From Mustelus asterias (Eukaryota), in the NCBI RefSeq assembly GCF_964213995.1, contig NC_135823.1:1674001-1738000 (forward strand): DNA of 64,000 nucleotides. Direction: 5' to 3'. Shown here in pieces: positions 1,243 through 37,200 of this stretch (position 1 is its first letter; each line of letters starts with the position of its first letter). The notes below the pieces were generated by a model, which made no database searches, was not told the origin of the DNA, and was given only the letters and a program-made list of their open reading frames with translations. A program made the translations under genes and the position numbers.

Positions 1243-1447
1243 ACACAGAGACTGTTAAGTTGTTGACGCATAACTAACGAATGCAGAGACTGTGCAATTA
1301 ACAATCACAAGAAGTTTATTATTTATTAGTGCCACAAGTAGGCTTGCATTAACACTGCAACGAAGAATAAATAAACGTGAAAGGTTCAAGCAAAAATAAA
1401 CGTTGCTAACAAATTACTAAAAATATGAGGAAAATGTTGGTATCTCC

Positions 1448-1778
1448 CTCTCTCAGATGAGACACTTCCACTGACAAGATGTTGACTGGAGTTGATCTGA
1501 ACGGCGCAGTTCCACCGAGCTCCACTGTTCATCGATCCCGCCTGGAGAATTATGTAACGGCTGGATGTATAATTTCCATCTGGATCGATGGCACCAGAAT
1601 CAATCCTGCGTCCATAACCGGCCAGAAACATCCCAGTGGATGGCAAAGTGATCTTGATCCACACTCTTCACCGCACACACCAAAGGGACCACTTCCATCC
1701 AGCGAACTTCAACCAGTGGTAGAGTTAAGAGGTAGATGATTGGAGTTCCGGGAGTGATAGATGGATAATACTGAGGCA
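1448..1778 (-). pseudogene. Paralogous IgSF pseudogene, C1 exon (frameshifted)
   Basis: PIIYLLTLP...VVPLVCAVKSVDQDHFAIHWDVSG, frameshift, IDSGAIDPDGNYTSSRYIILQAGSMNSGARWNCAVQI; colinear with exon 3 of the intact gene; donor appears mutated; 5' boundary uncertain. Confidence 0.85.
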
Positions 1779-1840
1779 CTATTGGACATTCATTTCCTGG
1801 TTATTCATGATACGATGGCGCAAATGATCGTTTTCTTTAC

Positions 1841-1975
1841 CTGTAATGAGCAATGCAGAACTGTTTGCAAACATAAAACGCATCCCACTGAACTGGCTCG
1901 CTGCACAGTAATACAGCCGCGAATCAATGGCCCGGACCCCCGCGATGCTTAGGGAATAGAGGGGCAATTTGTCAT
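1841..1975 (-). pseudogene. Paralogous IgSF pseudogene, 3' part of V exon with J-like strand
   Basis: DKLPLYSLSIAGVRAIDSRLYYCAASQFSGMRFMFANSSALLIT then phase-1 donor CAG|gtaaag. Confidence 0.87.
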
Positions 1976-1979
1976 TACG

Positions 1980-4900
1980 TTGTCAGGAATTCAGGAAGCT
2001 TGGGTGGAAGCTGAGAGCCAGGACAAAACAGGTTGTCATCTCTGGTATGTTGCCGGTGCCACGGGATAGCGAGTTGACGAACAGGGAGAGAGTGCACTTA
2101 AACACTTGGATGCAGGGATGGTGTAGGAGGGAGGGTTTCAGCTATGTGGATAATTGAAACACTTTCTGGGGAAGGTGGGACCTGTACCAACAGGACGTAG
2201 TGCACCTGAACCATAAGGGCACCAATATCCTGGGAGGGAAATTTGCTCCAGCTCTTCGGGGGGATTCAAACTAATTTGTCAGGGGGATGGAAAAATGAGT
2301 TGTAGTCCAGAGGTCAGTGAGTGTAGTGAGGTACTGGGAAGGGTATCATGGTCAAAGGTGGGTGCCAGCAGACAAGAAGGTGGGTTGAAGTGTGTCTACT
2401 TCAATGCAAGGAGCATCCGAAATAAGGTAGGTGAACTTGGGGCGTGGATTGGCACTTGGGACTACGATGTTGTGGCCATTACGGAGACATGGGTAGAACA
2501 AGAACAGGAATGGTTCTTGGACGTTCCGGGGTATAGATGTTTCAGTAAGTGTAGGGTAGCTGGTAAAAGAGGTGGAGGAGTGGCACTATTAATCAAGGAG
2601 AGTGTAACGGCTGCAGAAAGGCATTTCGAAGGGGATATGCCTACAGAGGTAACATGGGCTGAGGTTAGGAATAGGAAAGGAGCGGTCACGTTGATAGGAG
2701 TTTACTATAGGCCCCCAAATAGAAATAGAGATGTGGAGCAAGAAATTGCTAAGCAGATTATGGATAGGTGTGGAGGTCACAGGGTAGTTGTCATGGGCGA
2801 CTTTAACCTTCCAAACACTGATTGGAACCTTTATAGGTCGAATAGTTCGGATGGGGCAGTTTTTGTGCAGTGTGTGCAGGAGGGTTCCTGACACAATATG
2901 TGGATAAGCCGACAAGAGGTGGGGCCACATTGGATGTGGTAATGGGAAATGAACCGGGCCAAGTGTTGGATTTGGTTGTGGGAGAGCACTTTGGAGATAG
3001 TGACCACAATTCGGTGTCTTTTGTTATTACAATGGAGAGGGAGAGGGCCAGACGGCAGGGCATAGTTTACAATTGGGGGAGAGGTAATTATGATGCAATC
3101 AGGCGGGAATTTGGAAGCATAGGATGGGAACAAACATTGTCAGGCAACGGCACTAACGATAAGTGGAACTTTTTCAAGGAACAAATACTGCTTGTCCTTG
3201 ATAGGTATGACCCTGCCAGGCAGAGAGGAAATGGCCGAGTGAGGGAACCATGGTTCACAAAAGAGGTGGAATGTCTTGTCAAGAGGAAGAAGGAAGCGTA
3301 TGTTCGGTTGAGAAAACAAGGTTCAGTTGGCTCGATGGAGGGTTACAAGTTAGCAAGAAATTAGCTGAAAAAGGGGCTTAGGAGAGCTAGGAGGGGGCAT
3401 GAGAAGTCGTTGGCGGGTAGGATCAAGGAAAACCCCAATGCTTTTTACTCTTATGTGAGGAATAAAAGAATGACCAGGGTGAGGTTGGGGCCGGTCAAAG
3501 ACGGCAGTGGGAATTTGTGCATAGAGTCAGAAGAGATAGGAGAGGTGATGAATGAATACTTTTCTTCGGTGTTCACCAAGGAGAGGGGCCATGTTTTTGA
3601 GGAAGAGAGGGTGTCACAGGCTGATAGTCTGGAGGAAGTAGATGTTCGGAGGGAAGCTGTACTAGCAATTCTGAATGAACTGAAAGTTGGTAAGTCCTCT
3701 GGGCCTGATGTAATACATCCTCGGAGTCTTTGCGAGGCAAGGGATGAGATAGCAGAGCCTTTGGCATTGATCTTTGCGTCCTCACTGTCCACGGGGGTGG
3801 TGCCAGAGGACTGGAGAGTGGCGAATGTGTTTCCTCTGTTAAGACAGGGAACATAAATGACCCTGGTAATTATAGGCCGGTTAGTCTTACTTCGGTGGTC
3901 GGTAAGTTGATGGAAAAGGTCCTTATGGATAGGATTTACGACCATTTAGAGAGTTGCAGCTTAATCCGGGATAGTCAGCACGGATTTGTGAAGGGCAAGT
4001 CTTGCCTCACAAATTTGATAGAATTCTTTGAGGAGGTAACTAAGTGTGTCGATGAAGGTAGTGCAGTTGATGTCATATACATGGATTTTAGTAAGGCGTT
4101 TGATAAAGTCCCCCACGGTCGGCTTATGAAGAAAGTAAAGATGTGTGGGATTGAGGGACGTTTGGCCGATTGGATAGGTAACTGGCTATCTAACAGAAGA
4201 CAGAGGGTGGTGGTGGATGGAAAATGTTCGGACTGGAAACCGGTTACCAGCGGAGTGCCACAGGGATCAGTGTTTGGTCCTCTGCTATTTGTAATTTTTA
4301 TAAGTGACTTGGAGGAGGGGGCTAAAGGGTGAATCAGTAAATTTGCTGATGACACCAAGGTTGGTGGAGTAGTGGATGAGGTGGAGGGCTGTTGTAGGCT
4401 GCAAAGAGATATAGATAGGATGCAGAGCTGGGCTGAAAAATGGCAAATGGAGTTTAACCCTGGCAAATGCGAGGTGATTCATTTTGGTCGGACAAATTTA
4501 AATGTGGATTACAGGGTCAAAGGTAGGGTTCTGAAGAATGTGGAGGTACAGAGAGATCTTGGAGTTCATATCCATTGATCTCTGAAGGTTGCCTCTCAAG
4601 TGGATAGAGCCGTGAAGAAGGCCTATAGTGCGTTGGCGTTCATTAACAGGGGGTTTGAGTTTAAGAGCCGTGGGGTTATGCTGCAACTGTACAGGACCTT
4701 GGTGAGACCACATTTGGAATATTGTGTGCAGTTCTGGTCACCTCACTACAAGAAGGATGTGGAGACACTGGAAAGAGTGCAAAGGAGATTTACCAGGATG
4801 CTGCCTGGTTTGGAGGGTAGGTCTTATGAGGAAAGGTTGAGGGAACTTGGGCTTTTCTCTTTGGAGCGGAGGAGGTTAAGAGGAGACTTGATAGAGGTTT

Positions 4901-5243
4901 ATAAGATAATGAGGGGGATAGATAGAGTGAACGTTCAAAGAATATTTCCTCGGGTGAATGGAGCGGTAACTCGGGGGCATAACTATAGAGTTCATGGTGG
5001 GAGATATAGGAAGGATGTCCGAGGTAGGTTCTTTACGCAGAGAATGGTTGGGGTGTGGAATGGACTGCCTGCAGGGATAGTGGATTCAGAAACTTTCGGA
5101 ACATTTAAGAAGCTATTGGATAGGCACATGGAGTACTTCGGGATGATCGGGAGGAAATAGCTTGATCTGGGTTTCAGACCACGCTCGGCACAACATCGTG
5201 GGCCGAAGGGCCTGTTCTGTGCTGTACTGTTCTATGTTCTATG
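1980..5243 (+). mobile_element. CR1 LINE (ORF1 3' end, APE+RT ORF2, decayed) inserted in the pseudogene V exon
   Basis: YFNARS, TETW, GDFN, SDH, FADD with stops and frameshifts; standard tail. Confidence 0.95.
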
Positions 5244-5447
5244 TTAACGTCTCCAGAAAATCTCACATTTGAAGGGTTGCTTTTTGTCACGGTGTGAACC
5301 ACTTGTAGATGCTCCCGTTGCCGCTGTTTCTATCATGGACAATTCTCCCTGCTCACTAGTCCGTGTGACAATGCACCTTGTAGATGCTTCCAAGCGGTAG
5401 AATCTGGATCGCCGGGGTCTGGGACAAAACTGCCTGAGATACAAAAC
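5244..5447 (-). pseudogene. Paralogous IgSF pseudogene, 5' part of V exon
   Basis: tttcag acceptor then GFVSQAVLSQTPAIQILPLGSIYKVHC; after stops and a frameshift, TGA TAG AAA CAG (decayed WYKQ) RQREHLQVVHTVTKSNPSNVRFSGDVN, ending at the CR1 tail. Confidence 0.82.
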
Positions 5448-9344: not shown

Positions 9345-9695
9345 TTTTATTCATTCGAGGGGCATTGGCATCGCTGGCTGGCCAGCATAAATTGCCCATC
9401 CCTTGTTGTCCTTGGAGAGCAGTTTAGAGTCAATCACATTGCTGTGGCTCTGGAATTACATGCAGGACAGACCAGGTAAGGACGGCAGATTTCCTCCCCT
9501 AAAGTATATTAGTGAACCAGATGGGTTTTTCTGACAATCGAAAATGGTTTCATGGTCATCAGTCGATTCTTATGTCGCAATATATTTGATTGATTTCATC
9601 TGCCATGGCGGAATTCGAACCCAGGTCCCCAGAACATTAATTGAGTTTGTGAATTAATAGTCAAAAGGTAATGCCACTAGGCCATTGCCTCCCAG
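9345..9695 (-). mobile_element. tRNA-derived SINE sharing its 3' tail with the 5455-6213 LINE
   Basis: B-box GGGTTCGAATTCC; related copies at 17150-17497 (-) and 41833-42530 (+). Confidence 0.8.
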
Positions 9696-10546
9696 GTCTA
9701 ATCTGTTTCCATGAGACGTGAACATAATCAATCACTATGTCTCCACTGCTCTTGGGTCGTCCATCCCAAACAGTAATATTCAGTGGACAGAAGTAAACCT
9801 TTCTCATTGATAGATGGGAGATACCTTATTTAGAAACGGTGTACACTAGTTTTAGATTGTCACGCGAGAGGAAGTGGCTTCAGAATGCAGCCTGCCAATC
9901 TCCTCAGCAACTTGCATGTTCCAATCACATTCCTTCCAAAGGCCAAAGATGCGCAGGTTACGTGAATACGTCATGCTAAATTGTCCCTTAGTGTCCAAAG
10001 ATGAGAAGGTTAAATGGATTAGCCATGTTAAAATGCCCCTTAGTGTCCAAGGATGTGTAGTTCAGGTGGAAGAGCCGTGCTAAATTGCCGCTTAGTTTCC
10101 AAAATGTGTAGGTTAGTCGGATTAGCCGGATCAATATGTGGCGTCACGGGGATAGGGCCTGGGTAAGATCCTTTGTCGGATTGTCGGTGCCGAATCAATG
10201 GGCTGAATGGTACTCATTCTGTGTGTAAACCAACGGATAGGGTATTAGCAACGACATAATCAGTCAGATGTTGAAACAAAATCTGAAATATAAATTTGCC
10301 TGCACTTTTTATACCTTTCGGTTGCATTCCCGTGAGTAAATAGAACCAGAGGCCTCGGTTTTACCAACAATTGAAAATGATCCACACTCGGATTTTATAA
10401 CCAAATGCCCAGTGGGAAATTTAGGTGGTTGCTGTCTGCCATTCTCCGGAGCAATCGGTTGCAGTCCTGCCTCTCCCGTGAGGTCCACTGCCCCATTGAG
10501 CAGGGCCGAGTTTGGTCTTTGGTCAGAGAACCCGTGAAATCCCAGG

Positions 10547-10810
10547 GAAAGACCGGATTTATACTGGTGTTTATTGATATATTAACGACTGATTTGTTCA
10601 GTGTCGCAATTGTGTTTGCTTCTTAATTGTCCCGGCGGTTGTTGTCCTCCCGCGGTCCTCAATTTCTGACCGAGTCTCCGCTGCTCAGACTGCCTGATTA
10701 AAGTTTGGGTGTCGAACACTAATGTGGGCAGCTGCAGCGTGGATTTTCACCGAAAGCGGCCCCGGTGAAGATCCCGTTTGGATGATCTATCACGTACACG
10801 TGGTAGCCTC
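10547..10810 (+). pseudogene. Decayed Ig light-chain leader + V segment, resembling cartilaginous-fish sigma-cart (type I/NS5)
   Basis: Across frameshifts: RPDLYWCLLI/LTTDLFSVAI ... VLPRSSISDRVSAAQTA*LKF/VSNTNVGSCSVDFHRKRP/GEDPVWMIYH. ATG, first Cys and Trp are lost; 3' end is truncated. Class assignment is from my recall of shark NS5-type leader/FR1/FR2. Confidence 0.7.
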
Positions 10811-10864
10811 AATTCTGAAACCCTCAGTTATTAACATCTTTTGATAGATTCGGAAAAAAAATAG

Positions 10865-10990
10865 ACCATTGCTGTATGTGGGATTTAGCTGTTGGCAAAC
10901 TAGCTATAGTAATTTCCCACATGACAACATAACGAAAATTTAACACAAAACCTAAAATGTTTTGGAATGCTGAGAGATCGGGACCGAAGC
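10865..10990 (+). mobile_element. Decayed Deu-domain SINE fragment
   Basis: CATTGCTGTATGTGGGATTTAGCTGT...CCCACATGACAACA resembles the SacSINE/AmnSINE 3' region as I recall it. Confidence 0.45.
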
Positions 10991-11198
10991 AGGAACACAG
11001 TAACGTTGTGACTAAGGCCTGCAACCGGCACTTGCAGTGTTTTTAACTTCACTGCCCTGTAATCCTACTATATTCTGGGGGGAAAAAAACAGGTTCCCAG
11101 GCATTCTTGTCAAAAATATAGCAGATGTCGACAAAATCTTTGATAACTAAGCAGATGTAATAGTCCCTTAATCTATCAGTATTTATAATAATTATTCT

Positions 11199-11540
11199 GG
11201 GGCGGCACGGTAGCACAATGGTTAGCACTGCTGCTTCACAGCTCCAGGGACCTGGGTTCGATTCCCGGATTGGGTCACTGTCTGTGTGGAGTTTGCACAT
11301 TCTCCTCGTGTCTGCATGGGTTTCCTTCGGGTGCTCCGGATTCCTCCCACAATCCAAAGATGAGCGGGTTAGGTTGATTGGCCAGGTTAAAAATTGCCCC
11401 TTAGAGTCCTGTGATGCGTAGGTTAGAGGGATTAGCGGGTAAATATGTGGGGGTAGGGCCTGGGTGGGATTGTGGTCGGTGCAGATTCGATGGGCCGAAT
11501 GGCCTCCTTCCGCACTGTAGGGTTTCTATGATATCTATGA
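11199..11540 (+). mobile_element. HE1-type V-SINE, full length
   Basis: GGGCGGCACGGTAGCACA, B-box GGTTCGATTCC, V domain GTGTGGAGTTTGCACATTCTCC..., CR1-like tail. Confidence 0.92.
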
Positions 11541-11556
11541 TAAATTAGACTAAATT

Positions 11557-11856
11557 GGGGCGGCACAGCAGCACAGTGGTTAGCACGGCTGCCTCAGCGC
11601 CAGGGACGCGGGTTCTATTCCTGGCTTGGGCCACTGTCTGTGCAGAGTCTGCATGTTCTCCCCGTGTCTACGTGGGGTTCCTCTGGGTCCTTCGGTTTCC
11701 TCCCACAGTCTGAAAGAAGTGAACTGGCCATGCTAAATTCTCCCTCAGTGTACCCGAACAGGCGCCGGAGTATGGTGTCAGGGGATTCTCACAGTAACGT
11801 TATTCCACTCTTTATGCAAACCTACCTATGGCTAAGAAATAAGCTTTAACTTTTAA
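11557..11856 (+). mobile_element. V-SINE with a different tail (related copies at about 18125-18440, 19480-19780, 38172-38460, 43145-43432, 44645-44945, 63345-63645)
   Basis: tRNA head and V domain, tail TCACAGTAAC...AATAA. Confidence 0.85.
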
Positions 11857-11984
11857 ATTCACATTTCCGACTTAGTCACTATTCAAATAATACATAATAA
11901 TGTCAACGGTGGGTCTGAATGAGGCTGACGAAATGGATGTTCTCCCCGAGCGGCCAGCGTTAATCTCTACCATATAGAGCTGCA

Positions 11985-12110
11985 TCGAAGGATAATTTAG
12001 ATCCCAAAACGTTAACTCTGTTCTCTGCATAGATGCTGCCAGACATGTTGAGTTCGTTCAGCATTTTCAGATTGTATTTCAGATTTCTAGCAGCTGTAGT
12101 TATTTGCTTT
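11985..12110 (+). mobile_element. Penelope-type pLTR remnant with decayed hammerhead
   Basis: ...AAAACGTTAACTCTGTTCTCT..AGATGCTGCCAGACATGTTGAGT..CAGCATTTTC; same family as the split copy at 49475/51985. Confidence 0.55.
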
Positions 12111-12519
12111 TATACCAATATCTCTTTCAATCGGGATTTTCTCTGAGGGAGTGGCACGTCAAATCAAGAGGCGAGACGTCTTGAGATGTACCTATCATGC
12201 TCCAATATCGCGCTCCGATACATCCTCTCCACTCACCACCACCACCGCCCACGCTCCACTCCCCCCTCCCCCCAACCAAAAAACAACAAAGTTAGATTCT
12301 GATTATGAATTTACAACAGAAACATACAAATTTCCAATGTACCTTTGCAGTTTTGCAATCCATTTACTCAACTTTGGATGGTGAAAGTTCCAACAATATG
12401 ATAATTATCTCGTTCCATCAGCATCACAGTGAAGATGAAAATTGCATAAAATCATGATGCAGTAAAGTCCTCATGGTTTACAGGTTTTTTGAAACATCCT
12501 CACAGAATCTCAAACAATG

Positions 12520-19142: not shown

Positions 19143-19214
19143 TCATTTCCGTCTCTTCTTTTTTGACCTTTTTTCCAATGCAGCCAAATCCAGGGAGGCG
19201 TACAGAGGTCCATC
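19143..19214 (-). CDS. Exon 8, terminal exon [23 protein letters not shown]
   Basis: ttcccaatctcag acceptor, YxxL motif, TGA at 19145-19143. Confidence 0.82.
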   Translation of the reverse strand, partial: DGPLYASLDLAALEKRSKKKRRK

Positions 19215-22200
19215 CTGAGATTGGGAAATATATTCAACATTAATGATCGACGTGGCTAAAACAATTGTTTTTTTCCCCCCAAAATTCATTGCAATGCATT
19301 TTATTACAAGGGGTTCAATGCACTCACCTGTTTTCCAGACTGCGTTTTCAAGTTTGCCTCTGTTTGACGATGATCCCCTGTGTGTTAAGGGTTAAATAAT
19401 GAATTGAAATGTCACCCAAGCTATAGAATCTATAATTACATAGGAACATCGGGCGCCAAAGATCACCAGGATGTCAACAGTTCAAAGTTTATTGCAAGTG
19501 TCACAAGTGGGTTTACATTAACAAAGCAAAGATGTTACAGTGAAAATCCCCTCGTCGGCAGACTCTGGCTCCTGCTTTGTTGCACTGCGGGGGAACTTAG
19601 CATCATCAATGCACTTAACTAGCACGTCTTTCGGACTGTTGGACGACACCGGAGCACACGGAGGAAACCCGCACGCACACGGGGGAAACATGCAGACTCG
19701 ACACAGACAGTGACCCAAGCCGGAATCGAACGCAGGTCCCTGATGTTACGAGGCAGCAGTGCTAACCACCGTGCCGCCGCAATATGTTCACAGGCTATAA
19801 TCATTATCACACAGCTACTTAAATTTTACCAAACGAGAGGTATTCCACAATTCTTCAGAGGCACTTAGAAATAGCACTGTAGGTGAAGGGGACCAAAAGA
19901 TCTGGGGAGAAGGCGCGACCAGGCTACTGAGTTGGGTGATTGGCCATGTTCAGAGTGAATGGCGGAGCAGGATCAAAGGACAGAATGGTCTCTTCCTGCT
20001 CCTATTTTGGATGTTCCTATGTGAAGTTGCCAATGGATAGATGAGGAAAATCTCATACCAGTACTTATCGCCTGTTGTCCACCTGGTATACCACTACTAG
20101 TATTAATATCAGCGATTTTCCCTTTTATGAAAACAGCAGATTCAAGTGTGATTGTTGAACTTGCTGACGTTAAGGAATGCACATTGTGGACAGAAATAGC
20201 AAGTTGCGGCTGATTCAACTAAACAAAGGAAGGTGCAGGCATTCCCTGGTTCATTCGTCGGGCCAATGATTTAACCAATCAGTCAAACGACCTCTTTTTA
20301 ATTTTATATCAGGCAATAAAGAAGGCAAATAGTATGTTAGCATTCGTAGGGAGGCGATTTCTCTACAGGAATAGGGATGATTTACTGCTATTGCATAGGG
20401 CGTTCCGTGAGAAACATTGCGTGCAGTTTTGGTATCCTTGTCTGAGGAAGGATCTCCTTGCTATAGAGGGCGAACAGCGAAGATTTACCATCTGACTTCT
20501 GGAATGGAAGGTCTATCATATGAGGAGAGGCTAAATCGGTTAGGATTATAATCACTGGAGTTTAGATGAGTGAGATGGGATCGCAAAGAAAATTATACAA
20601 TTCTGACAAGATTAGAAAGAGTAGATTCAGAAAGATGTTTTTTTGCGATGGTGGGGCAGTAGAGAACTAGGGGTCAAAGTTTGAAGATCCGGGAAAATGT
20701 TTGCAGAACTGAGCTGAGGGGAAATTTCTTCACCCAGAGGGTGGCGAATGTGTGGAATTCACTGCCACAGAAATTAGTTGACGCCAAAAGATTGTCTGAT
20801 TTCAGGAAGAAATTAGATATCGCTCTTGGAGCGAAAGGAATCAAGAGATATCGGGAAAGGGGGGAATCAGCGTACTGAATTTGATAATCAGCCATGATCA
20901 TAATGAATAGGAGAGCAGGTTAAAAGAGCCGAATGGCTTATTCCTCGTTCTAGTTTCTATGTTTCTACATTAACAAATACAGGTACATAACAGGCAGTCA
21001 TCAGTTAACTCCTGTATTCTCCATAAAAAGCTACAACCAAGCAGAGTCCACATGCCAGGAAGAATGCACAATTGTTTCCCTTACATTTGTTATTCTTGTG
21101 TTTTTTGCTGATGAACACAAGGCCAATAGCCCCGATGATATGTTTTTCTCCCAGATATACTCAATATTCAACTTTTCTTTCAAACTGTTCTTCACAGTTA
21201 ACTGTCTGTACCATTCAACTGGTGCATTCTCCATGGCAACGCCTCTGCCAATCAACTTCCACCTCATTTATTTTTCATTCTGACATTTAATCTCCACCGA
21301 CATTTCAAAGAAGCTTACCCGTTTTTCGCTCCTTACGTCCCTCTTGCTGCCTTCTCCCACTGAAGCGAACATTGGATGTGGAAAAAGAACACGAAACAAA
21401 TGTTAGATCTAGGATATCCTATCTCAAGTGCTGCGCATTGTTGAAAGTAGGATTGTCTAGTAATTTTACCGAAATGATAGAAAATAGAGGCACACACCAC
21501 TGGTCTCAGTTTTCGGGTTGAAACAGGTTTGACAAAATATAAAACAGAGGAGAGAAAGAACAATGATGGTGTGCTTTACACATGCTTGTCTTACTCACGT
21601 TTCATTGTGGGATCCTATGTCTCTGTCTTCTAAAATAGAAGAACATATAATTAGCTGATTAAAAGCTACAAGGAGGAAATCGTATTGGAGAAACCGGTAT
21701 TAAAGTGTCCCAGATAATGATTAATCCTCACCTGATCTGACGTTTTTCCAACTCCAAATGGAAATAAGGATCAACAGTAGAATCAGTATGACCAGGGCAG
21801 TAATTCCAACAGAAACCGTGTGTCTGCACCATTCTATAGAGAAAAAAACACTTGGAAACTGGCATCGGTCAAATCATTCTTTTCCAGGGTTCTCTGAAGG
21901 GAAACGTGACCCGGTTAAAAATGCGGATTCACCAAAGCAGGGGGTGAATGTGGAAAAAAAAACACAGTTAGTGGTATGGATAGTGGAGAATGAACACACA
22001 GTTTGGAATTGATGACACAATATTTGCTAGTAGAGATTTATCAAATTGCAGCACTATCAATTGTCCATATTCACAGTGTATCAGTATGTATAAGATCATA
22101 AGACCACAAGACATAGGAGCAGAATTGGGCGACTTGGCCCATCGAGTCTGCTCTGCCATTCAATCATGGCTGATATTTTTCTCATCCCAATTCTCCATAA

Positions 22201-25200
22201 CCCCGGATCGCGTTATTAATCAAGAAACATTCTATCTCTGTCTTAAAGACATTCAATGTCTAATGTGGCGTCCACAGCCTTCTGCGGCAAAGAGTTCGAC
22301 AGATTCACCACTATCTGACTGAAGAAATTCCTCCTCATCTCTATTTTAACGGTTCGTCCCTTTAGTCTGAGGTTGTGCCCTCTGCTTTTAATTTTTCCCA
22401 CTGTTGGAAACATCCTCTCCACGTCCACTCTGTCCAGACCTCGCAGTATCCTATAAGTTTAAATAAAATCCCCGCTTATCCTTCCAAACTCCAAAGAGTA
22501 CAGACCCAGAGTCCTCAATCGTTCCCCACTCTCTTCATTCCAGGATTCATTCTTGTGAACCTCCTCTGGACCCCTTCCAAGGCCAGCACTTCCTTCCCTA
22601 GATACGGTGAAAACATCATAGAAAATTCTGATTTCTGAACAGATTCAAAGAAGGATAATGCCCAGAAGGAATCTAGTCGGCCATCCTTCCATGGTTGTTT
22701 CTTTGATTGTCACAACTACAAATGCTCGTTTCCCCCATAGTCCTGAAAGCTATTCCCCATCAATATTAGCCCAATTCTCTTTTCGAAGTTCCTACTGTAC
22801 CTGTTCACACCGCCTTTTCTGGGCCAGCGTTCCAAATCCCAAAACGGCATTGTGCAAAAAAAAAATCATCAGAGCATTGAGTCTAGGAGTTGGGACGCAA
22901 TGTACACAACTGTACAAGACATCGGTAAGGCCACATTTGGAGTACTGTGCAAAATTATGTTCGCTCTGTTATAGGAAGGATGCTATTAAACTGGGAACTG
23001 TGCAAAAAAAAGTTGTTACTGGGACTGGAAGGTTTGAATTAAAAGGAGAAACTGGATAGGCTGGAACTTTTTTCCTGAGCGTAGAAGGATGAGGGGTGAC
23101 CTTATAGAAATGTATAAAATCATGAGGTGCCTAGATAAGGTGAGTAGCCAATGTATTTTCCTCAGGGTAGGGGGGGGGTCCAAAACTAGAGGGGATAGGC
23201 TGAAGTGAGAGGGGAAACATTTAAAAGGGACGGAAGGGGCAACGTTTTGCACACAGAGGGTGGTGCACGTATGGATTGAGCTGACAGAGGAGATGGTAGA
23301 GCCGGGCACAATAACAACATTTAGAAGAAATTTGGACAGGGACATGGATGGGAAAGGTTGAGGGGATATGGGCCAAACGCGGGCAAATGGGACCATTTCA
23401 GATTAGGAAACCTGGTCGACATGGAGGAGATGAGCCTAAGGGCCTGTTTCGGTGCTGCATATCTCTATGACTCGATGTCTCCATTTCACTCTTTGTACCA
23501 ATCATTTTCAGTCTGTGTCCCCCTGGTTACTGACACTACTGTCAGTGGAAACGATTCTCATTTTTCTTTACTAATAAAATGCTCTCGAATTTGGAACTTC
23601 GATTATTTTTTTTTAACCTAGATTGCTCGACGGAGTACAAGCCCAGCTCATCCCTTCTGTCCACGTTAACTAAATTCGTTCATTCCATCCTGGAATTCTC
23701 CTTTGCATCATCTCCAAGCCTTTGATATTCTTCCCAAAAAATAGTGCTCGGAACTGAAGACCATGCGACAAACGTGTCTAACGTGTCCATAAACTGATTC
23801 GAATCGGTTTAAATTAATTTCCGAGCTCGATCTCTCAATTTTAAAAGTTTAGGTGCATGTATATGTCCTTCAACAGCCACGTGAGTTGATGCTTCCATCT
23901 CCCAAGATTTATGGAAACTCAGAATGATTACAGCGCACAGGCAAGCAATTTAGCAGATGCTGGAAAGACGGAGGATGATGGGCGAGCTCATAGATGTCTA
24001 TAGAATTACAAGGGGCACAGGGAAGGTGAAGAGTTGGTAGCTTTTTACCAGGACAATTACAAGGGGGCACAAGTTCAAGGTAAGAGGAAAAGGTTCAGTA
24101 GAGCTGTGCGAGGGAAGTTCTTTTCACAGAGGGTGGTGGGGGACTGGAATGCAATGCCATGACTTATCTGGATAGACACACGGACAGGAAGAGGGATACA
24201 GATGGTTGGTCTAGATCGGCCAACGTGATCGGTGCAGGCCTGGTGGGCCGAAGGGCTTGGTCCTGTGCTGTACTGTTCGTTGTTCTTTGATACCTGCACG
24301 ACATTTCTGCAAGAACAACTCAGTCACATTCATCTACCCTTCTCCTCCAACTTGCTTTTTTTTAATCCAATTTATTTAATTCTTCAATTCGCTTTGCGCA
24401 GCCTCGAGTAATTGTGCCTCCAGTACAGTTCCAGATACTGCATTTCACATCCATTCTCCCCCTCTCTACTTGTGTTTCCTGCGGTTGCCCTGGTTTCCTC
24501 CCACAATAAGAAGTTAAACAACACCAGGTTAAAGTCCAACAGGTTTATTTGGTACCAAAAGGCACACAAGTTTTCGGAGCCTTAAGCCCCTTCTTCAGGT
24601 GAGTGGGAATTCTGTTCACAAACAGGGCATATAATGACACAAACTCAATTTACAGAATAATGGTTGGAATGCGAATACTTACAGCAAATCAAATCTTTAA
24701 GATACAAACAATGTGAGTGGAGAGAGCATCAAGAGAGGCTAGAGATGTGTATTGTCTCCAGACAGGACAGCCAGTGAGACTCTGCAGGTCCAGGCAAGCT
24801 GTGGGGATTACCGATAGCGTGACATGAACCCAATATCCCGGTTGAGGCCGTCCTCATGTGTGCGGAACTTGGCGATCAGTTTCTGCTCAGCGAAACTCAG
24901 CCGTCGTGTGTCGTGAAGGCCGCCTTGGAGAACGCTTACCCGAATATCAGAGGCCGAATGCCCGTGACCGCTGAAGTGCTCCCCAACAGGAAAAGAACAG
25001 TCTTGCCTGGTGATTGTCGAGTGGTGTTCATTCATCCGTTGTCGCAGAGTCTGCATGGTCCCCCCAATGTACCATGCCTCGGGACATCGGTTCCTGCAGC
25101 GTATCAGGTAGACAACGTTGGCCGAGTTGCAAGAGTATGTACCGTGTACCTGGTGGATGGTGTTCTGACGTGAGATGATGGCATCTGTGTCGATGATCCG

Positions 25201-28200
25201 GCACGTCTTGCGGAGGTTGCTGTGGCCGGGTTGCGTGGTGTCTGAGTTTGAAATTGAGTTTGTGTCTTTATATGCCCTGTTTGTGAACAGAATTCCCACT
25301 CACCTGAAGAAGGGGCTAAAGGCTCCGAAAGCTTGTGTGGCTTTTGCTACCAAATAAACCTGCTGGACTTTAACCCAGTGTTCTTAAACTTCTTACTGTG
25401 TTTACCCCAGTCCAACGCCGGCATCTCCACATCATTCCTCCCACAATCCAAAGATGAGCAGGTTTGTTGGATTGGCCATGCTAAATTGCTTCTTAGTTGT
25501 CCAGAATGCGCAGGTTACCTGGATTTGCCGTGCTAAATTGCCCCTTAGTGCCACAAGATGTGAAGGTTGGGGGACTAACGGTGTAAATACGTAGGGTTAC
25601 AGGGGTAGGGCCTGGGCAAAATGCTCTGTTGGAGAGCCGGTAAAGACTTGATGATCTAAATGTCCTCCTTCTGCACTGTAGGATTGGATGATCTGTGTAG
25701 ACTCACGGACAGTCAATTATTTATCGTGTGAAGGATGAGTTGGAATCCTTACCACCAACCTAAATTCAAGATTTGCTCTTAATACATTTAAAATAGCGGC
25801 ACCGGGGCAGGCATAGTCCATTCAGCTAATCGAGCCTACTTCCATACGATCATGGGGCGGCACGGTGGCACAGGGGTTAGCATTATTGCTTCATATCTGT
25901 TCAATTCCCGGCTAGGGTCATTGTCTGTGTGGAGTTTGCACATTCTCCCCATGTCTGCGTGGGTTTTCCCTGCGTGCTCTGATTTCCTCCCACAGTCCAA
26001 AGATGTGCAGGTTAGGTGAATTGGCCAAGCTAAATTGATTCTTAGTGTCGGAGGTCTAGCGAGAGTAAATGCATGACCTTATGGGGATAGGGCCTGGGTG
26101 GGATTGTTGTCGCTGCAGACTCGATTGTTCGAATGGCTTCCTTCTGCACTGTAGGATTCTATTGCTGATTAAAGATGTTATACAAAGTTACTGACATCAG
26201 GATGCTAAGTTTAAATTTATATTATGTGTGAGGATGTATTTGTAGATTGAACAAAAGGGAGTAAAGTGAGGTTAATTAATTCACCGCCCTTCAGGGCAAA
26301 ATGTCAATTTCAACTCTTGTCTACTGTCTGTTTCCAAGGACTCTGCGGTGTAGAACTGATCACACCTCCATTAGAACATAAGAACCAGGAACAGGAGTAG
26401 GCCATCTGGCCCCTCAAACCTGCTCCGCCATTCAATAAGATCATGGCTGATATTTCTGTTTACTTTCACCACTCTTTTTCGTTTTATATATTTGCAGAAA
26501 CTTTTGCTATCTGTTTTTATATTCTGAACTAGTTTGCTCTCACAATCCATCTTACCTTTCATTATAACGTTTTTTGTGGCTTTCTGCTGACCTTTAAAGA
26601 TTTCCCAATCCTCTATGTTCCCACTAATCTTTGCCACTTTGTATGCAATTGTTTTCAATTTCATACCCTCCTTTAATTCCTTAGATATCCATGGCGGATG
26701 ACCTCTTTTTCTACAGTCCTTCCTTATCACTGGTATATACTTTTGCTGAGCACTGTGAAAGATCGCTTTGAAGGTCCTCCACTGTTCCAGTTCAAATGAA
26801 TGCCTGGCTAAAGGACTGGTCCAGGAGGGAGGGCTTTATTTTCATAGACCAATGGGAGGTTTTCAGGAGAGGATGGCACCTGTACAAGAGGGAGGGGTCA
26901 CAACTAAGTTGGAAGGGCACAAATATCCTGGCTGGGAGCTTTGCTAATGCAGTTCGGGGGGGTTTAAACTAGTATGGCAGGGGGGTGGGGATCAAACTAT
27001 TAGGTCTATAAGTGTGGTGGCTGGGGACGAGCTTTGGGCTGGGACAAGGCTGGCAAAGAAGAAGAGCACTCTGGGGGAGGACGACCTCACTGAGCCTGGG
27101 TGTCTGGAGTGCTTATACTTCAATGCAAGGAGCGTAGCAGGTAAAACAGACGAACTCGGGGCCTTAATGCGCACGAGGAATTTGGATGTGGTTGCGGTGA
27201 CAGAGACTTGGTTGAAAGAGGGACAGGACTGGCAGCTGAATATTCCAGGGTACAAGTGTTTTAGGCGAGACAGAGGAGGGGCCAAAAGAGGTGGGGGAGT
27301 AGCGGTATTGGTTGGAGAGCATATTACAGCGGTGCAGAGGGAGGACAATTCGGAGGAGTCGTGTAGCGAGTCACTCTGGGTGGAGCTTAGAAACAGGAAA
27401 GGCGCAGTCACTATGTTGGGGGTGTACTACAGGCCCCCCAACAGCCCAAGGGAAGTGGAAGAATGGATATGTCAGGAGATACTGGATAGGTGCAGGAAAT
27501 ATAGGGTTGTTGTAGTGGGAGACTTCAATTTCCCTGGTATAGACTGGAAATCGCTGAGGGCAGGGACTCTGGATGGTGAGGCATTTGTAAAATGTGTACA
27601 GGAGGGTTCGTTGGAACAATATGTGGACAGCCCAACTAGAGAGGGGGCTATACTGGACCTGGTGCTGGGGAATGAGCCCGGTCAGGTCTTCAAAGTTTTG
27701 GTTGGGGAACATGTGGCAAATAGTGACCACAATTCTGTTAGCTTTAGGATAGTGATGGAAAAGGATGAGTGGTGTCCCAAGGGTAAGGTGTTGGATTGGG
27801 GGAAGGCTAACTTTATTGGGATCAGGCAGAAATTGGCAGCTCTTGATTGGGAGAGGCTGTTTGAGGGTAAATCCACATCTGGTATGTGGCAGTCTTTTAA
27901 GGAACGGTTGTTAGGGCTACAGGACAAGCATGTGCCTGTAAAAAAGAAGGATAGGAAGGGTAGGATTAGAGAACCGTGGATAACCAGGGAAATTGAGGGA
28001 CTGGTCAAAAGGAAAAGAGAGGCGTATGTTAGGTCCAAGCAGCTAAAAACGGAGGGAGCTCTGGAGGAGTATAATGAAAGTAGGAAAATACTCAAACGGG
28101 GAATTAGAAGAGCAAAAAGGGGTCACGAAATGTTCTTGGCAGACAGGATTAAGGAGAATCCCAAGGCATTTTATTCATACGTTAGGAACAAAAGGGTTGT

Positions 28201-31200
28201 TAGGGAAAAAATCGGACCTCTCAGGGACAAAAGTGGGGACTTATGCTTGGAGCCCAAAGAGGTAGGGGAGATCCTAAATGAATACTTTGCGTCGGTATTC
28301 ACTAAGGAGAGGGATGTGTTGACTGGGAGTGTCTCGGAGGGGAGTGTTGAACCGTTGGAGAAAATCTCCATTACAAAGGAGGAAGTGTTAGGTTTGTTAG
28401 AGAATATAAAGACTGACAAATCCCCAGGGCCTGATGGAATCTATCCAAGGCTGCTCAGGGAGACGAGAGGTGAAATCGTTGGGCCTCTGACGCAAATCTT
28501 TGTCTCGTCACTGGACACAGGTGAGGTCCCAGAGGATTGGAGGATAGCCAATGTGGTCCCGTTATTTAAGAAGGGTAGGAAGGATAACCCGGGTAATTAT
28601 AGGCCGGTGAGCTTGACGTCCGTGGTGGGGAAGTTGTTGGAGAAGATTCTTAAAGATAGGATGTATGCGCATTTAGAAAGGAATAAACTCATTAACGATA
28701 GTCAACATGGTTTTGTGAGAGGGAGGTCATGCCTCACGAACCTGGTGGTGTTTTTTGAAGAAGTGACCAAAATTGTTGACGAAGGAAGGGCCGTGGATGT
28801 TGTCTATATGGACTTTAGTAAAGCATTTGACAAAGTCCCTCATGGTAGGCTAGTGAAAAAGGTTGGATCCCATGGGATAAAGGGGGAGGTGGCTAGATGG
28901 GTGGAGAACTGGCTTGGTCATAGAAGACAGAGGGTGGTAGTGGAAGGGTCTTTTTCCGGCTGGAGGCCTGTGACTAGTGGTGTACCGCAGGGCTCTGTAT
29001 TGGGACCTCTGCTGTTTGTGATTTATATAAATGACCTGGAAGAAGGAGTAACTGGGGTGATCAGTAAGTTTGCGGACGACACAAAACTGGCAGGACTTGC
29101 AGATAGTGAGGAACATTGTCAGAGGCTACAGAAGGATATAGATAGGCTGGAAATTTGGGCAACGAAATGGCAGATGGAGTTCAATCCTGATAAATGCGAA
29201 GTGATGCATTTTGGTGGGAATAATGTAGGGAGGAGCTACACGATAAATGGAAGAACCATAAAGGGTGTAGAGACGCAGAGGGACCTGGGTGTGCAAGTCC
29301 ACAGATCTTTGAAGGTGACGTCACAGGTGGAGAAGGTGGTGAAGAAGGCATATGGCATGCTTGCCTTTATAGGACGGGGCATAGAGTATAAAAGTTGGGG
29401 TCTGATGTTGCAGATGTATAGAACGTTGGTTCGGCCGCATTTGGAATACTGCGTCCAGTTCTGGTCGCCACACTACCAGAAGGACGTGGAGGCTTTGGAG
29501 AGAGTACAAAGGAGGTTTACCAGGATGTTGTCTGGTATGGAGGGGCTTGGTTATGAGGAGAGATTGGGGAAACTGGGGTTGTTCTCCTTGGAAAGACGGA
29601 GGATGAGGGGAGACTTAATAGAGGTGTATAAAATTATGAAAGGCATAGATAGGGTGAACGGTGGGAAGCTTTTCCCCGGGTCGGTGGTGACGTTCACGAG
29701 GGGTCATAGGTTCAAGGTGAAGGGGGGGAGGTTTAACACAGATATCAGAAGGACATATTTTACACAGAGGGTCGTGGGGGCCTGGAATGTGTTGCCGGGC
29801 AAGGTGGTGGAGGCGGACACACTGGGAACGTTTAAGACTTATCTAGACAGCTATATGAACGGAGTGGGAATGGAGGGATACAAAAGAGTGGACTCGTTTG
29901 GACCAGGGAGCGGCGCGGGCTAATTGTTCCTGGTTTCTCGTTTCAAGGCTTCATTCTATGATCATCTTGCTGGTGCCAGTACAGAGTGAGACTGCGGATA
30001 GTTGGGAACCTGTCTCGGGGGCAGGGAATTCATATGGTGTTCGTGGAAGTGGAAATGACTAGGGTTGGGAAGCATTTTCCGATCGGGGCCATTGTGATCT
30101 CCTGGACTCGTTTCGATCGCCTCAGGGGGTCGGAGAGGAATTTCCCAGATTTTTTTTCCCCATATTGGCCCTGGGGTTTTTCACTCTGGGTTTTCGCCTC
30201 TCCCTGGAGATCACATGGTCTGGAATGGGGGGGTGCGGGTAAGTTAATAGGTTGTAATGAACAAAGCATCGTAGCTGTGAGGGACAGCTCGGTGGATAGG
30301 ATATTGGTATGTAGATAGGCTGGAAAATTGGGCGGGGATCCTGGATTCAGGATTCAATCCTGGACCGGGGAGCGGCGCGGGCTTGGAGGGCCGAAGGGCC
30401 TGTTCCTGTCCTGTATTGTTCTTTGTTCTTGTTCTTTGTTCCTCAATTGTCTCACCATAACGTTTTTGCTCCCATTCTACCTTAGCCAACTTCTCCCTCA
30501 TCCCTTTATAGTCTCCTTTGTTTAACAACAAGACACTGGAATTGGATTTTACCTTCTCACGCTCCATCTGTATTTTAAATTCAACTATACTGTGATCGCT
30601 TCTTCCAAGAGGATCCCCTAACTGCAAGATCATTAATTATTCGCGCCTCATTACACTGGACCAGATATAGGATAGTTTGCTCCCTTACTGTTCAAGGAAC
30701 CTGTCGCCGATACATTCTGTGAACTCCTCCTCAAGGCTGCCTTGACCGCCCTGGTTTGACCAATTGATTTGGAGATTATAATCCCCCATGATAATTGCTG
30801 TACCATTTTTACATGCATCAGTTATTTCTTTGTTTATTTCTCGCCCCACCATGATGTCATTATCTGGTGGCCTATAGACTACGCCTATCAGTGACATTTT
30901 CTCCTTACTATTTCTAATTTGCACCCAAATGGATTCAACCTTTTTTTTCCATAGAACCTATATCATCTCTCACTGCCGCCCTGATACCATCCTTAAATAT
31001 CAGAGCTACATCACCTCCCTTACCTTCCTGTCGGTCCCGCCAAACAATTTGATACCCCTGGATATTCAACTCCCAGTCGTGACCATCCTGCAACCATGTC
31101 TCTGTAATGGCCACCAAATCATACGTTCGCAATGATTTGTGCTGTCAACTCATTTATCTTGCTTCGAATGCTACGAGCATTCAGATAAAGTGCCCTTATG

Positions 31201-34200
31201 CCAGATTTTGTAGCTTCTTTTTGAATTCTAACACTTCCATTAATAAAATCTCCTGAGTTCTCCTTCCTTTTAACTATTTTTACTGAATTTTGATGTAGTT
31301 GGAACCGTCTCCCCACATTTTGTTCTTGCTCCCTTCTTCTCGGACTCCTTACATAGGTTCCCATCCCCCTGGCATATTAGTTTAAACCCTCCCCAACTGC
31401 TGTAGCAAAGACTCCCCCTCGGACATCAGTACCAGTCCTGCCCAGGTGTAACCCGTCCAATTTGTACAGGTCCCACCTCCCGATAACCGGTCCCAATGCT
31501 TCAGGAATCTGAAACCATTCCCCGACACCATCTCTTCAGCCACGTATTTATCCGATATACCCTCTCATTTCTACTCTGACCAGCACGGGACACCAGTAGT
31601 AATCCTGAGATCACTACCTTTGAGGTCCGATTTCTTACATTCCTTCCTAGCTCCCTGTATTCTGCTTTTAGGACCTCATCTCTTTTTTTTAATCCATGCT
31701 GCTTGTACCAACGTCTACTACGACCACTGGTTGTTCGCCCTCCCCCTTCAGAAGGTCCAGCAGCCGCTACGAGACATCCTTGGCCCGAGAATCAGGGAGG
31801 CAACATACCTTCCTGGAGTCTCGTTTGCGGCCACAGAAACGCCTGTCTATTTCCCTTACATTTAAATCCCCTATAACTATTGCACTGGCACACTTTTTAT
31901 CCCTCCCCTCTGCAGCAAAACCAACCATGGTGCAACACGTTTGGCTGCTGCTGCTTTCCCGAGAGAGGTCATTCCTCGATTTACTTCCTGGAAAGGGAGA
32001 TGGGAGCAACTAATAACCTTCAGGAGGGAAATCACGTCTGGACATGAAGGAGAAAACTTGAAAGGCCGAGGGGGGAAATGGTGGGCCGAATAGGATAGCT
32101 CCGTCGAAGAGACAGTCTCGGCATAATGGGCTGAACGAGATCTTTCTGGGTGCATATATCAAATATTTGTACATGTTTTCAGAAACACAAAGCGAAACGG
32201 AGAATAATGTACTAAACACGAAGCTATTCTGGGGCAGGTGCAATTCCAATGCAGACTGACATATTTTAACAATTGAATGCACACAAACGCTCAAATAAAT
32301 ATCTATACACACACACACACACACTCGAACAGACAGATATCGATACACACACACTCAGATACGTATGTTTGCACAAACATAGACACACGCGCATTCAGAT
32401 ATTTATCGATACAAGGTCACGGTACACATTGGTACACGATAGAGGTCGTGGTACAAATTGGTACCGCTGACATAGGTAGGAAGAGGGAAGGGGTCATGAA
32501 AAGAAAATATAGGGAGTTAGGTAGACAGTTGAGAAGGAGGAACGCAAAGGTAGTAATCTCAGCATTGCTGCCTGTGCCACGGGAAAGTGAGAGCAGGAAT
32601 GGAGTGAGATGGAGGATGAATGCGCGGCTGAGGGACTGGAGCAGGGGGCAGGGATTCCGGTTCCTGGATCATTGGGACCTCTTTAGAGGCAGATGTGACC
32701 TGTACAAAAAAGGCGGGTGACACTTGAATCCCAGGGGGACCAATATCCTGGCAGGAAGGTAGGCTAAGCCTACTGGCTAAGGCTATCTTTAAACTAGAAA
32801 GGTTGGGGGGAGGGAATCGTGGTGAGGTGACTGAGAGCGAGGAGGTGAGCCCGCAAATAGAGAAGGATTGTACACACTATAAGAGGGAGAATAGACGTGT
32901 GATGCAGAAGGGGCGAGCTCAGACCAAATGTTTGAGATGTGTCTATTTTAACGCCAGGAGTGTAGTGTATAAAGTGGATGAGCTTAGAGTGTGGATCGAT
33001 GCTTGGAAGTGTGATGTGGTGGCCATTACGGAGTGGGGACAGGGACAGGACTGTATACTTCAGATGCCGGGTTTCAGATGTTTGAGAAAGGACAGAAAGG
33101 GAGGCAAAAGAGTGGGGGTGGGGGGGGGGGAGTGGCACTGCTGATCAGGGATAGTGTCACAGCTATAGAGAAGGTGGAAGCCGTGGAGGGATTGTCTACG
33201 GAGTCTCTGTGGGTGGATGTGTGGAGCGGGGAGCGATCGATAACTTTGTTGGGTGTTTTCATGCACAGGCCACCCAATAGTAACAGGGATATTGTGGAGC
33301 AGATAGGGAAACAGATCCGGGAAAGATGAAGTAATAACAGGGTTGTCGTGATGGGAGACTTTGATTTCCCAAACATCGATTGGAATACCCCTCGGGTAAG
33401 AGGTTTGGATGGGGAGGAGTTTGTTAGGTGTGTTCAAGAGGGTTTCCTGACATAGCATGTGGATAAGCCTACAGGAGGAGAGGCTGTACTCGATCTGGTA
33501 CTGGCTAATGAGCCTGGACAGGTGTCGGATCTCTTACTGGGGGAGCATCTTGGGGATAGTGATCATAACTCTATCTCCTTGACGCTCGCATTGGAAAGAG
33601 ATAGGATCAGGCAAGCTAGGAAAGTGTTTATCTGGAGTAAGGGGAAATATGAAGCCATTAGGCAGGAGATTAGAGGCGTAAATTGGAAGGAGATATTCTC
33701 GATGAAAAGTAGCGAAGTAAGGTGGCAGATTTTCAAGGAATGTTTGTCCAGAATTCTGCATGACAACGTTCCGATGAGACAGGGAGGTTTTGGTACGTTA
33801 CGGGAACCGTGGGGCACGAAAGCTGCGCTGAACCTAGTCAAAAAGAAAAGGAAAGTGTACAAAAAGGTTCGGAGAGCTAGGCGGTGTTAGGGATCTAGGT
33901 GAGTATACGGCTTGTAGGAAGGGACTCAAGAAAGAAATTAGAAGAGCCAGAAGGACCACGAGAAGGCCTTGGCAGGTAAGATTAAAGAGAACCCTAAGGC
34001 GTTCTATAAATATGTGAAGAGTAAAAGGATGAGATATGAAGGAATAGAACCTATAAAATGTGAAGGTAAGAAAGTCTGTACAGAACCGGAAGAAATAGCA
34101 GAGGTGCTAAATGAATATTTTACCTCGGTATTCACGGTAGAAAAATACCTGGGTGGTTATAGTACAGGTTTGAGGTGGACTGAAAAGATTGAGCATGTGG

Positions 34201-37200
34201 ACATCAAGAAAGAGGATGTGTTGGAAATTTTGAATAGCATCAAGATAGATAAGTCGCCGGGACCGGATGTGATGTTCCCCAGGTTACTGTGGGAGGCGAG
34301 GGAAGAGATTGCAGAGCCTCTCGCGATGATTTTTGCGTCGTCGATGGAGACGGGACAGGTTCCGGAGGATTGGAAGATTGCGGATGTGGTTCCTATATTC
34401 AAGAAAGGGAATAGGGATAGCCCAGGAAATTTATGACCGGTGAGTCTAACCTCAGTAGTTGGTACGTTGATGGAGAGGATGCTGAGCGACAGGATTTATG
34501 AACATTTAGAGACATTTAGTATGTTCAAAAGTAGTCAGCACGGTTTTGTCAAAGGCAAATCGTGCCATACGAGCCTGGTGGTGTTCTTTGAAAATGTGAC
34601 TGAACACATTGACGAAGGAAAAGCGATAGATGTGGACTTCAGCAAGGCGTTTGATAAGGTCCCCCATCTAAGAGTTCTCGAGAAAGTGAGAGGGCATGGG
34701 ATCCAAGGGGCTGTTGCCTTGTGGATCCGGAACTGGCTTGCCTGCAGAAGGCAGAGAATGGTTGTAGATGGGTCTTTTTCTGAATGGAGGTACGGCACCA
34801 GTGGACTGCCCCAGGGTTCTGTTCTGGGACCCTTGCTGTTTGTCATTTTCATAAATGACCTGGATGAGGAAGTGGAGGGATGGGTTGGTAAGTTTGCCGA
34901 CGACACGAAGGTTGGCGGTGCTGTAGATAGTTTGGAGGGATGTCAGAAGCTGCAGCGTGACATAGATAGGATGTAAGACTGGGCGGAGAAGTGGCAGATG
35001 AACTTCAATCCGGATAAATGTGTAGTGGTCCATTTTGGCAGGTCAAATGGGATGGAGGAGTATAATATCAAGGGTAAGACTCTTAGCACTGTAGAGGATC
35101 AGAAGGACCTTGGGGTCCGGGTCCATAGGACTTTTAAATTGTCCTCGCAGGTAGAGAAGGTGTTTAAGGAGGCGTATGGTGTGCTGGCCTTCAATAATCG
35201 AGGGATTGAGTTTAGGAGTCGGGAGATAATGATGCACCTTTATAAAACCCTCGTCAGACCCCACTTAGAGTACTGTCCTCAGTTCTGGTCGCCTCATTAG
35301 AGGACGGATGTGGAAATGATTGAAAGGGTGCAGAGAAGATTTACAAGAATGTTGCCTGGATTGGTTGGCATGCCTTATGAGGATAGGTAGAGGGAGCTCG
35401 GTATTTTCTCTTTGAAGAGACAAAGGATGAAAGGTGACCTGATATAGGTGTACAAGATGTTGAGAGGTATAGATCGGGTGGATTCTCGGAGGCTTTTTCC
35501 CAGGGCGGAAATGGCTGCTACGAGAGGGCACAGGTTTAAGGTGCTGGGGAGTAGGTACAGAGGAGATGTCAGGGGTACGTTTTGCACTCAGAGGGTGGTG
35601 GGTGAGTGGCATCGGCTGCCGTTAGTGGTGGTGGAGGCAAACTTGATAGGGTCTTTTAAGAGACTTCTGGATGAGTACATGGAACTTAATAGGATTGAGG
35701 GTTATAGGTAAGCCTATATATAAGCCGAGGTAGGTAGGGACATGACCAGCGCAACTTGTGGGCCGAAGGGCCTGTTTGTGCTGTATTTTTGCTCCATGTT
35801 CTATGATACACGCACGCGTTCAGATATTTATCCATACACACACACTCAGATATTTATGCATACACGCACATGCACACAAGCTCAGATATTTATTTAAATA
35901 CGCACAGGGACACATACACGCTCAGATATGTTTCTATACACACACATACACAGGCTCAGATATTTATTTATACATGCACAGGGACACACACACGCTCAGA
36001 TATTTACCTACACTTACACATAGAAACACACGCTCAGATATTTATCGATAAATATATATATACACACACATGCTCAGAAATTTATCTCTACACCCACATA
36101 GACACACACACGCACAGATATTTACCGACACACACACAGAAACACAGACTCAGATATTTATCGATACACACACACATTCACACACATGGACAGCTATTTA
36201 TCTGAACACGCACATAGACACACACGTGCTCATATATTTACCTGTACATACATATAGAAACACACGCGCTCAGATATCTATCTATGCGCGCTCATAGACA
36301 TACAGACGCTCAGATATTTACCTGTACATACATATAGACACACATGCGCTCAGATATTTACCTGTATACACACATACACACATGCACACTCTCAGGTATT
36401 TACCTATACCTACATATAGACACACACACTCTCAGATATCAATCTATACACACATATGTAAACACATGCTCAGATATTTATCTATATACACACATGTAAA
36501 CGCACGCTCAGATATTTACCTATGCACATACATACACATAAACACGCTCAGAAATTTACCTCTGCATGCACTTCGAGATACACACGCTCAGATATTTATC
36601 TACATATGCACAGAAGGTCAGGTATATATTTATATACAAACACTCACACATACAACTATATAAACAAACGCTCAGATATTTATCTATATACGGAACTCAA
36701 ATATATAACTATATACACAAGTTCAGATATATATCTATACACATACATCTAAGTCAGAGATAACGTACCAACCGAATCATGAACAGCTTTTTCCCTGCTG
36801 CCATTGGCTTTTGAATGGACCAACCTTATATTAAGGTGATCTTTCTTTATACCCTGCAACACTGCATTCTGCGCCCTCTCCTTTCCTTTCCTCTATGTAC
36901 TCTCTGAATGGTATGCTTTGTCTTTATAGTGCGCAAGAAACAATGTATATTAATACATGTGACAATAATAAATCAAATTAAATCAAACGCTCAGAGATAG
37001 ACCTACACACACCACACACGCTCTCTCTCTCTCTCACACACACACACAGACACACACACGCACACACATTCACTCAATCGCACATATATTTATACACACA
37101 CATATATATCCTCAGAAGCCTAGAATTTACTTAATTAATCCAAATGTCTCTAAAGTTGAATAGAAACTTTCAATATACAGAGTAACATTTCACCTTTCCA

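Follow-up and report, generated by a model that had tools for sequence, protein, structure and literature searches.

The plus-strand element at positions 10547..10810 of the window, by which we mean the entire 64,000-nucleotide stretch of Mustelus asterias DNA that was analysed, is probably an Ig light-chain V pseudogene fragment of an ordinary kind, namely the inactivated 5' half of a gene. Taken as a whole, its best explanation, which we hold with reasonable confidence, is a non-functional putative orphon: a shark IgL cluster's 5' portion that would have been copied as DNA, truncated, decayed and duplicated. Its lesions, its truncation, the missing RSS, J and C in the window and the existence of multiple versions are all directly visible in the DNA.

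The sequence-only reading of this DNA had described a light-chain-type V pseudogene of sigma-cart type. The pseudogene itself is supported, its leader was probably misassigned and the sigma-cart label is plausible from spacing. All the peptides quoted in that reading are present on the plus strand, spread over three frames: RPDLYWCLLI (10550-10579), LTTDLFSVAI (10582-10611), ISDRVSAAQTA*LK (10662-10703), NTNVGSCSVDFHRKRP (10715-10762) and GEDPVWMIYH (10764-10793). The Ig V exon remnant, as delimited by PDB matches, spacing and an in-register score, occupies 10627..10795 (+) and comprises the end of the leader, FR1, CDR1, FR2 and the start of CDR2. It bears a stop codon TGA at 10695, the loss of one nucleotide near 10710 and an extra C in the run at 10760-10763, and the codons for Cys23 (10704) and Trp41 (10745) are both TTT. 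With FR3 also absent, the Cys23/Trp41/Cys104 core of a V domain is missing, as is expected of a pseudogene.

The V-likeness of the fragment is probable, as several weak lines of sequence comparison agree, none of them individually strong. A read-through of 10700-10835, made with one hand-chosen frameshift, gave 49 matches in the PDB at E<=10, of which 49/49 are antibody chains and 48/49 are named as light chains; the best E-value is 0.03 and the match ends at about 10793-10799. Since all these matches are antibody chains, a remnant of an Ig light-chain V is likely, although none of the searches attained firm significance. The unshifted frame gave two matches at E<=10 (E 0.8 and 1.2), both to light-chain V domains and in register over FR1 and FR2. 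Control searches with the opposite strand, with the other frame and with a hand-picked FR3-like piece read through in the same manner returned no Ig match. Against 14 V domains of the VJ-C1 receptor family, to which the neighbouring genes belong (see below), the read-through scored +6.6 in register as against -45+/-12 for shuffled sequences (2/5000), and -29 to -48 off register; when frameshift freedom was given to the whole window, 90 of 127,075 positions reached the fragment's VJ-C1-profile score. Other searches returned nothing: pieces of the fragment had no match in Pfam, the fragment had none at E<=0.001 among 1.84 billion sequence representatives, the FR1 piece alone had none, a profile (A4) had none in the PDB, and Rfam had none over 9500-12500. 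Word-based homologue searches, a method that is itself weak evidence, produced no candidates sharing words with the fragment, and an atlas search with its plain-frame piece yielded nothing usable.

The V similarity ends where CDR2 starts, and a high-copy repeat begins at about 10821. This old repeat, delimited by contig depth and loose ends with approximate bounds of 10821..10980, stands in the place of CDR2, FR3 and the RSS: contig depth peaks at 10857-10889, and loose ends occur at 10867 and 10905, with loose letters resembling 10821-10850. We take it to be SINE-like. An FR3-like stretch at about 10970-11050, V-like by eye, was rejected as no Ig chain matched it. Motif and remnant scans of the window bear out the earlier statement that no RSS, J or C survives at the fragment. 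In the whole window an RSS with up to three mismatches occurs at two sites, 17488 (-) and 61281 (+), neither near the fragment, and a four-mismatch site lies at 12425; no J motif or C1 remnant was found beyond those of the two VJ-C1 genes. Within the window the fragment is hence accompanied by neither the RSS or germline-joined J nor the C exon of an IgL V gene. The sites at 17488 (-) and 12425 (+) have perfect CACAGTG heptamers with poor nonamers and adjoin no V or J.

The leader formerly placed at 10550..10611 (+) lacks both an ATG and a GT donor, needs a frameshift and is probably intron sequence; two other versions of the fragment have CAG in place of its Trp codon, by a TG/CA swap. About 280 nt further upstream is a better candidate for the leader exon, and 'almost no leader intron' gives way to a probable intron of about 295 nt. 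This probable decayed exon, found by a scan for donors and ATG codons, spans 10268..10331 (+), begins with ATG and has 21 codons plus 1 nt, i.e. phase 1. The consensus splice donor GTGAGT follows at 10332..10337 (+), and the probable leader intron, 10332..10626 (+), has a pyrimidine-rich 3' end (70-75% pyrimidines before 10626/10635). We infer its exact end, as the acceptor AG has decayed. On this model the fragment has the split-leader organization of a phase-1 exon, an intron and a V exon. The scan considered GTRAGT donors on both strands (n=53) for an ATG lying 15-23 codons upstream in an open phase-1 frame, and three of the 53 qualified: the real leader of the neighbouring gene A, the donor at 10332, and one at 39697 (+) that is probably due to chance. 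The candidate exon was chosen after the fact and is weakly hydrophobic (best 8-mer hydropathy 1.25 vs 3.15 in gene A); by its sequence it cannot be assigned to a family. Its donor is conserved, in that a contig of an 86% version has G followed by GTGAGT at the same place, where 25/30 letters match the window by hand count. The paralogue indels at 10415-10428 and a 138-nt skip at 10351-10490 fall inside the proposed intron; tandem duplication was rejected as the cause of the skip, as 213/300 shuffles do as well. Upstream, SINE-like repeats at 9930..10221, detected by self-BLAST of the window and by 52-nt internal repeats, end 46 nt before the ATG, where a promoter would lie; within them, the SINE-like element at 9943-10138 contains the 52-nt unit three to four times. 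An octamer-like site at 10294 was rejected, being one of 70 such sites in the window. Leader introns are reported in two papers: nurse shark NS5-2 has one (PMC2435157) and that of NS4 is 186 bp (PMC2193156).

Copies of the fragment were judged from the DNA contigs of four runs, three of which gave cover, and the comparisons hold among the differences listed. Contigs of one run (X1) include the window's version, a version about 94% identical and pieces at 86-88%; the ~94% version is also present in runs X3 and X4, where it extends to at least 11062. The versions within X1 imply at least two loci, with alleles and paralogues not fully separable. Among the differences listed, the other versions have no indel across 10430-10836, and the frameshifts of the V are thereby common to the versions. 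The listed changes remove the TGA at 10695 and create a TAG at 10712 and a TGA at 10740, so both frames are stopped and no frame is conserved among versions. From the shared frameshifts and the lack of a conserved frame it follows that the gene was presumably dead before it was copied. Three TG/CA swaps among versions, at 10437, 10486 and 10565, suggest independent CpG decay.

The fragment lies in LINE- and SINE-rich shark DNA and, as had been noted before, between two VJ-C1 genes, on the plus strand, about 8 kb past the stop of gene A and about 5 kb from the V of gene B. Gene A (19143..38562, -) is an open reading frame for a non-rearranging V(J)-C1-TM-cytoplasmic receptor, as established by Pfam and an exon map. 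All its parts are on the minus strand: the leader at 38562-38508 with ATG, hydrophobic core and GTGAGT donor; a single-exon VJ at about 37940-37614 (Pfam V-set 4e-11); a C1 at 37523-37194 (Pfam C1-set 5e-10); a TM at 21833-21732; and tail exons with YASL reaching to about 19143. The V domain of gene A matches XP_078095903.1, a public model from Mustelus asterias, at 100% identity; this model begins within the V domain and omits the leader exon 38562-38508. The same search gave 21 further matches from five other sharks, several per contig. The family V has an extra Cys pair and a J-like end without FGxG, and automatic annotation names the family 'immunoglobulin kappa/lambda light chain-like' despite its TM and YASL tails. 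With at least five VJ-C1 matches on one Heterodontus contig and eight on one catshark contig, the sequences suggest tandem arrays; tandem families of these genes occur in at least six sharks. Gene B (1440..5435, -) is a pseudogene with the architecture of gene A, from a divergent subfamily, with a V exon split by a LINE of about 3.3 kb, stops and a frameshifted C1 that is about 30-43% identical to the family; its leader was sought in the window and not found. We take these neighbours to be PRARP-like, VJC1-type non-rearranging receptors. Elsewhere in the window, a long degenerate tandem array fills 35807-36700 in an intron of gene A, a 139-N gap in a GA-rich microsatellite lies between the fragment and gene A (15159-15297), and the ORF at 25299-24811 (-) presumably resembles the GIY-YIG endonuclease of a Penelope-type element.

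As for isotype, a sigma-2 (sigma-cart, type I, NS5) identity is plausible on the basis of gap-free spacing. The fragment presumably fits shark sigma-2/type I chains closely, as the sequence-only reading had it. Given a single 1-nt loss, the Cys23 codon is 41 nt, or 13 residues, from the Trp41 codon, and the stretch from position 4 to Cys23 covers 20 residues. CDR1, read most parsimoniously, has eight residues, the length at which the sigma-2 CDR1 is fixed in PMC5985310, and one not unique to sigma-2, since the lambda and kappa ranges given there include 8. The corresponding sigma-2 CDR2 has seven residues, and the fragment is truncated within CDR2. One sigma-2 V, from ropefish, is printed in the part of supplement file 8 of that paper that was examined; its spacing is identical to the fragment's and fits it gap-free, whereas the hand-counted kappa, lambda, lambda-2 and sigma V regions of the same file need gaps. 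By hand-counted identities, the fragment matches the ropefish sigma-2 at 13/49 without gaps, the ropefish kappa at about 17 with three gaps and the best VJ-C1 V at 14/49; these counts fail to discriminate isotype, and the bony-fish sequences do not single out sigma-2. A printed shark sigma-2 sequence was sought in literature text and not found, and figure and supplement alignments may hold one; the supplements of PMC3964593, PMC4762898 and PMC5241823 were searched without result, and PMC3308330 and PMC11599192 provided background only.

The strongest competitor to a sigma-2 orphon, which we nevertheless consider rather unlikely, is a decayed V of another kind, either of a different IgL isotype or from the local VJ-C1 family, of which it would be a divergent member in inverted orientation. 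The best PDB matches are lambda-3-like and kappa chains, a ranking that cannot fix the isotype as no identifiable sigma-2 chain is among the matches. The VJ-C1 V domains share the 20/13 spacing, one member scores 39, and the candidate leader lies slightly above shuffles against VJ-C1 leaders (59/2000). Against this, the remaining 13 VJ-C1 V domains score -2 to +8, the DNA similarity of the fragment to gene A or gene B is within background, and a free VJ-C1-profile scan recovers pieces of gene B and misses the fragment, whose site does not rise above background (28, reversed DNA giving 32-35). A DNA similarity to the gene A V (score 82) was rejected, as 9/691 pieces of the window match that score and the alignment is out of register.

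Very unlikely is a reading in which a genuine sigma-2 IgL region, of which the fragment marks the edge, is in physical linkage with the VJ-C1 cluster as an old syntenic relic. Its several versions might share one region, and a precedent is given in PMC12227049, where UrIg2 is linked to Ig/TCR and to some IgL, including sigma-prime in the great white shark. Yet the 64-kb window has no J, C or RSS of an IgL cluster and offers no support for linkage of the fragment to a working IgL locus. The sharks in which both can be located also argue against it: Table S1 of PMC12227049 places sigma-prime IgL on great white shark chr27 (>17 Mb) and IgL sigma on catshark chr17 (>133 Mb), whereas the three VJ-C1 matches of the former are on contigs of 0.4-6.0 Mb and the eight of the latter on a 15.6-Mb contig. 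These contigs may be unplaced chromosome pieces, on which Ig/TCR genes often lie (PMC10751288). Shark Ig clusters can spread over many chromosomes, and one of the four nurse shark sigma-2 loci is a pseudogene, according to PMC5192425. It is a long shot that the VJ-C1 array contains repeated dead fragments of sigma-2 V, located equivalently in other sharks, and that these mark an ancient physical link to a light-chain locus; if true, following that link might lead back toward the ancestral antigen-receptor region.

That a low-copy repeat of non-coding DNA resembles a V by chance is highly improbable. The search statistics are weak throughout, and the 'frameshifts' are common to all versions seen; on the other hand, the light-chain matches of two frames are correctly ordered and in register, a phase-1 leader with a donor lies upstream on the right strand, and the three control searches gave no Ig match. 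A processed retrocopy of light-chain mRNA, suggested by the short spacer between the formerly proposed leader and the V, is hardly credible, since the intron is not precisely removed: even the older model leaves a 35-45 nt T-rich spacer, in the revised one an intron of about 295 nt is still unspliced and its donor intact, and no J or C follows downstream.

The putative orphon thus fits best among the alternatives raised earlier. For its history we infer the isotype, the DNA-level route, the order of events and neutrality. The leader exon, intron and V exon of a shark Ig light-chain cluster, most likely sigma-2/type I/NS5, would have been copied as DNA, and the copy would have landed in the VJ-C1 receptor array in the orientation opposite to that of the array genes. 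Everything from CDR2 on (FR3, RSS, J and C) would then have been lost, its place now occupied by the old repeat; two frameshifts would have been acquired and Cys23 and Trp41 lost; and duplication together with the flanks would have left at least two loci carrying a fragment that, unable to rearrange or encode a domain, presumably decays neutrally. For an IgL fragment that is differentiated and inverted, a later insertion is the best reading, and even if linkage were real, such an opposite-orientation fragment of an already differentiated isotype would by itself say nothing about shared ancestry with the VJ-C1 receptors. As it stands, the fragment is a genomic leftover that matters little and gives no evidence on how antibodies arose; it can serve as a marker for the growth of the VJ-C1 array and for dating it. 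Only if conservation among sharks and proximity to intact sigma-2 clusters were demonstrated would it contribute to the question of where rearranging receptors arose. A search by titles and beginnings of abstracts, mostly outside the subscription literature, found no paper on it.

Among known systems, gene A resembles the PRARP/VJC1-type receptors in its single-exon VJ, C1, TM and YASL tail, whereas the fragment lies on the opposite strand and shows no detectable derivation from such neighbours. Like UrIg/UrIg2, as described in PMC12227049, gene A is a non-rearranging VJ-C1 gene of a type discussed as antigen-receptor precursors, but it has one C1 domain where UrIg genes have three or more; the fragment is unrelated to UrIg, save for the precedent for linkage. 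With shark IgL sigma-2 V genes the fragment shares the split leader with an intron, the 8-residue CDR1 and the length of FR1, and with the ropefish sigma-2 V of PMC5985310 an N-x-N-V in CDR1. Unlike shark sigma-2 V genes, it is truncated in CDR2, frameshifted, devoid of RSS, J, C, Cys23 and Trp41, and isolated from any V-J-C cluster within the window. Ig orphons and dispersed V pseudogenes are a general concept, and dispersed Ig pseudogenes are expected in sharks. The fragment is like these in being a genomic copy with an intron, multi-copy and decaying; it differs from them in sitting inside a non-rearranging receptor array.
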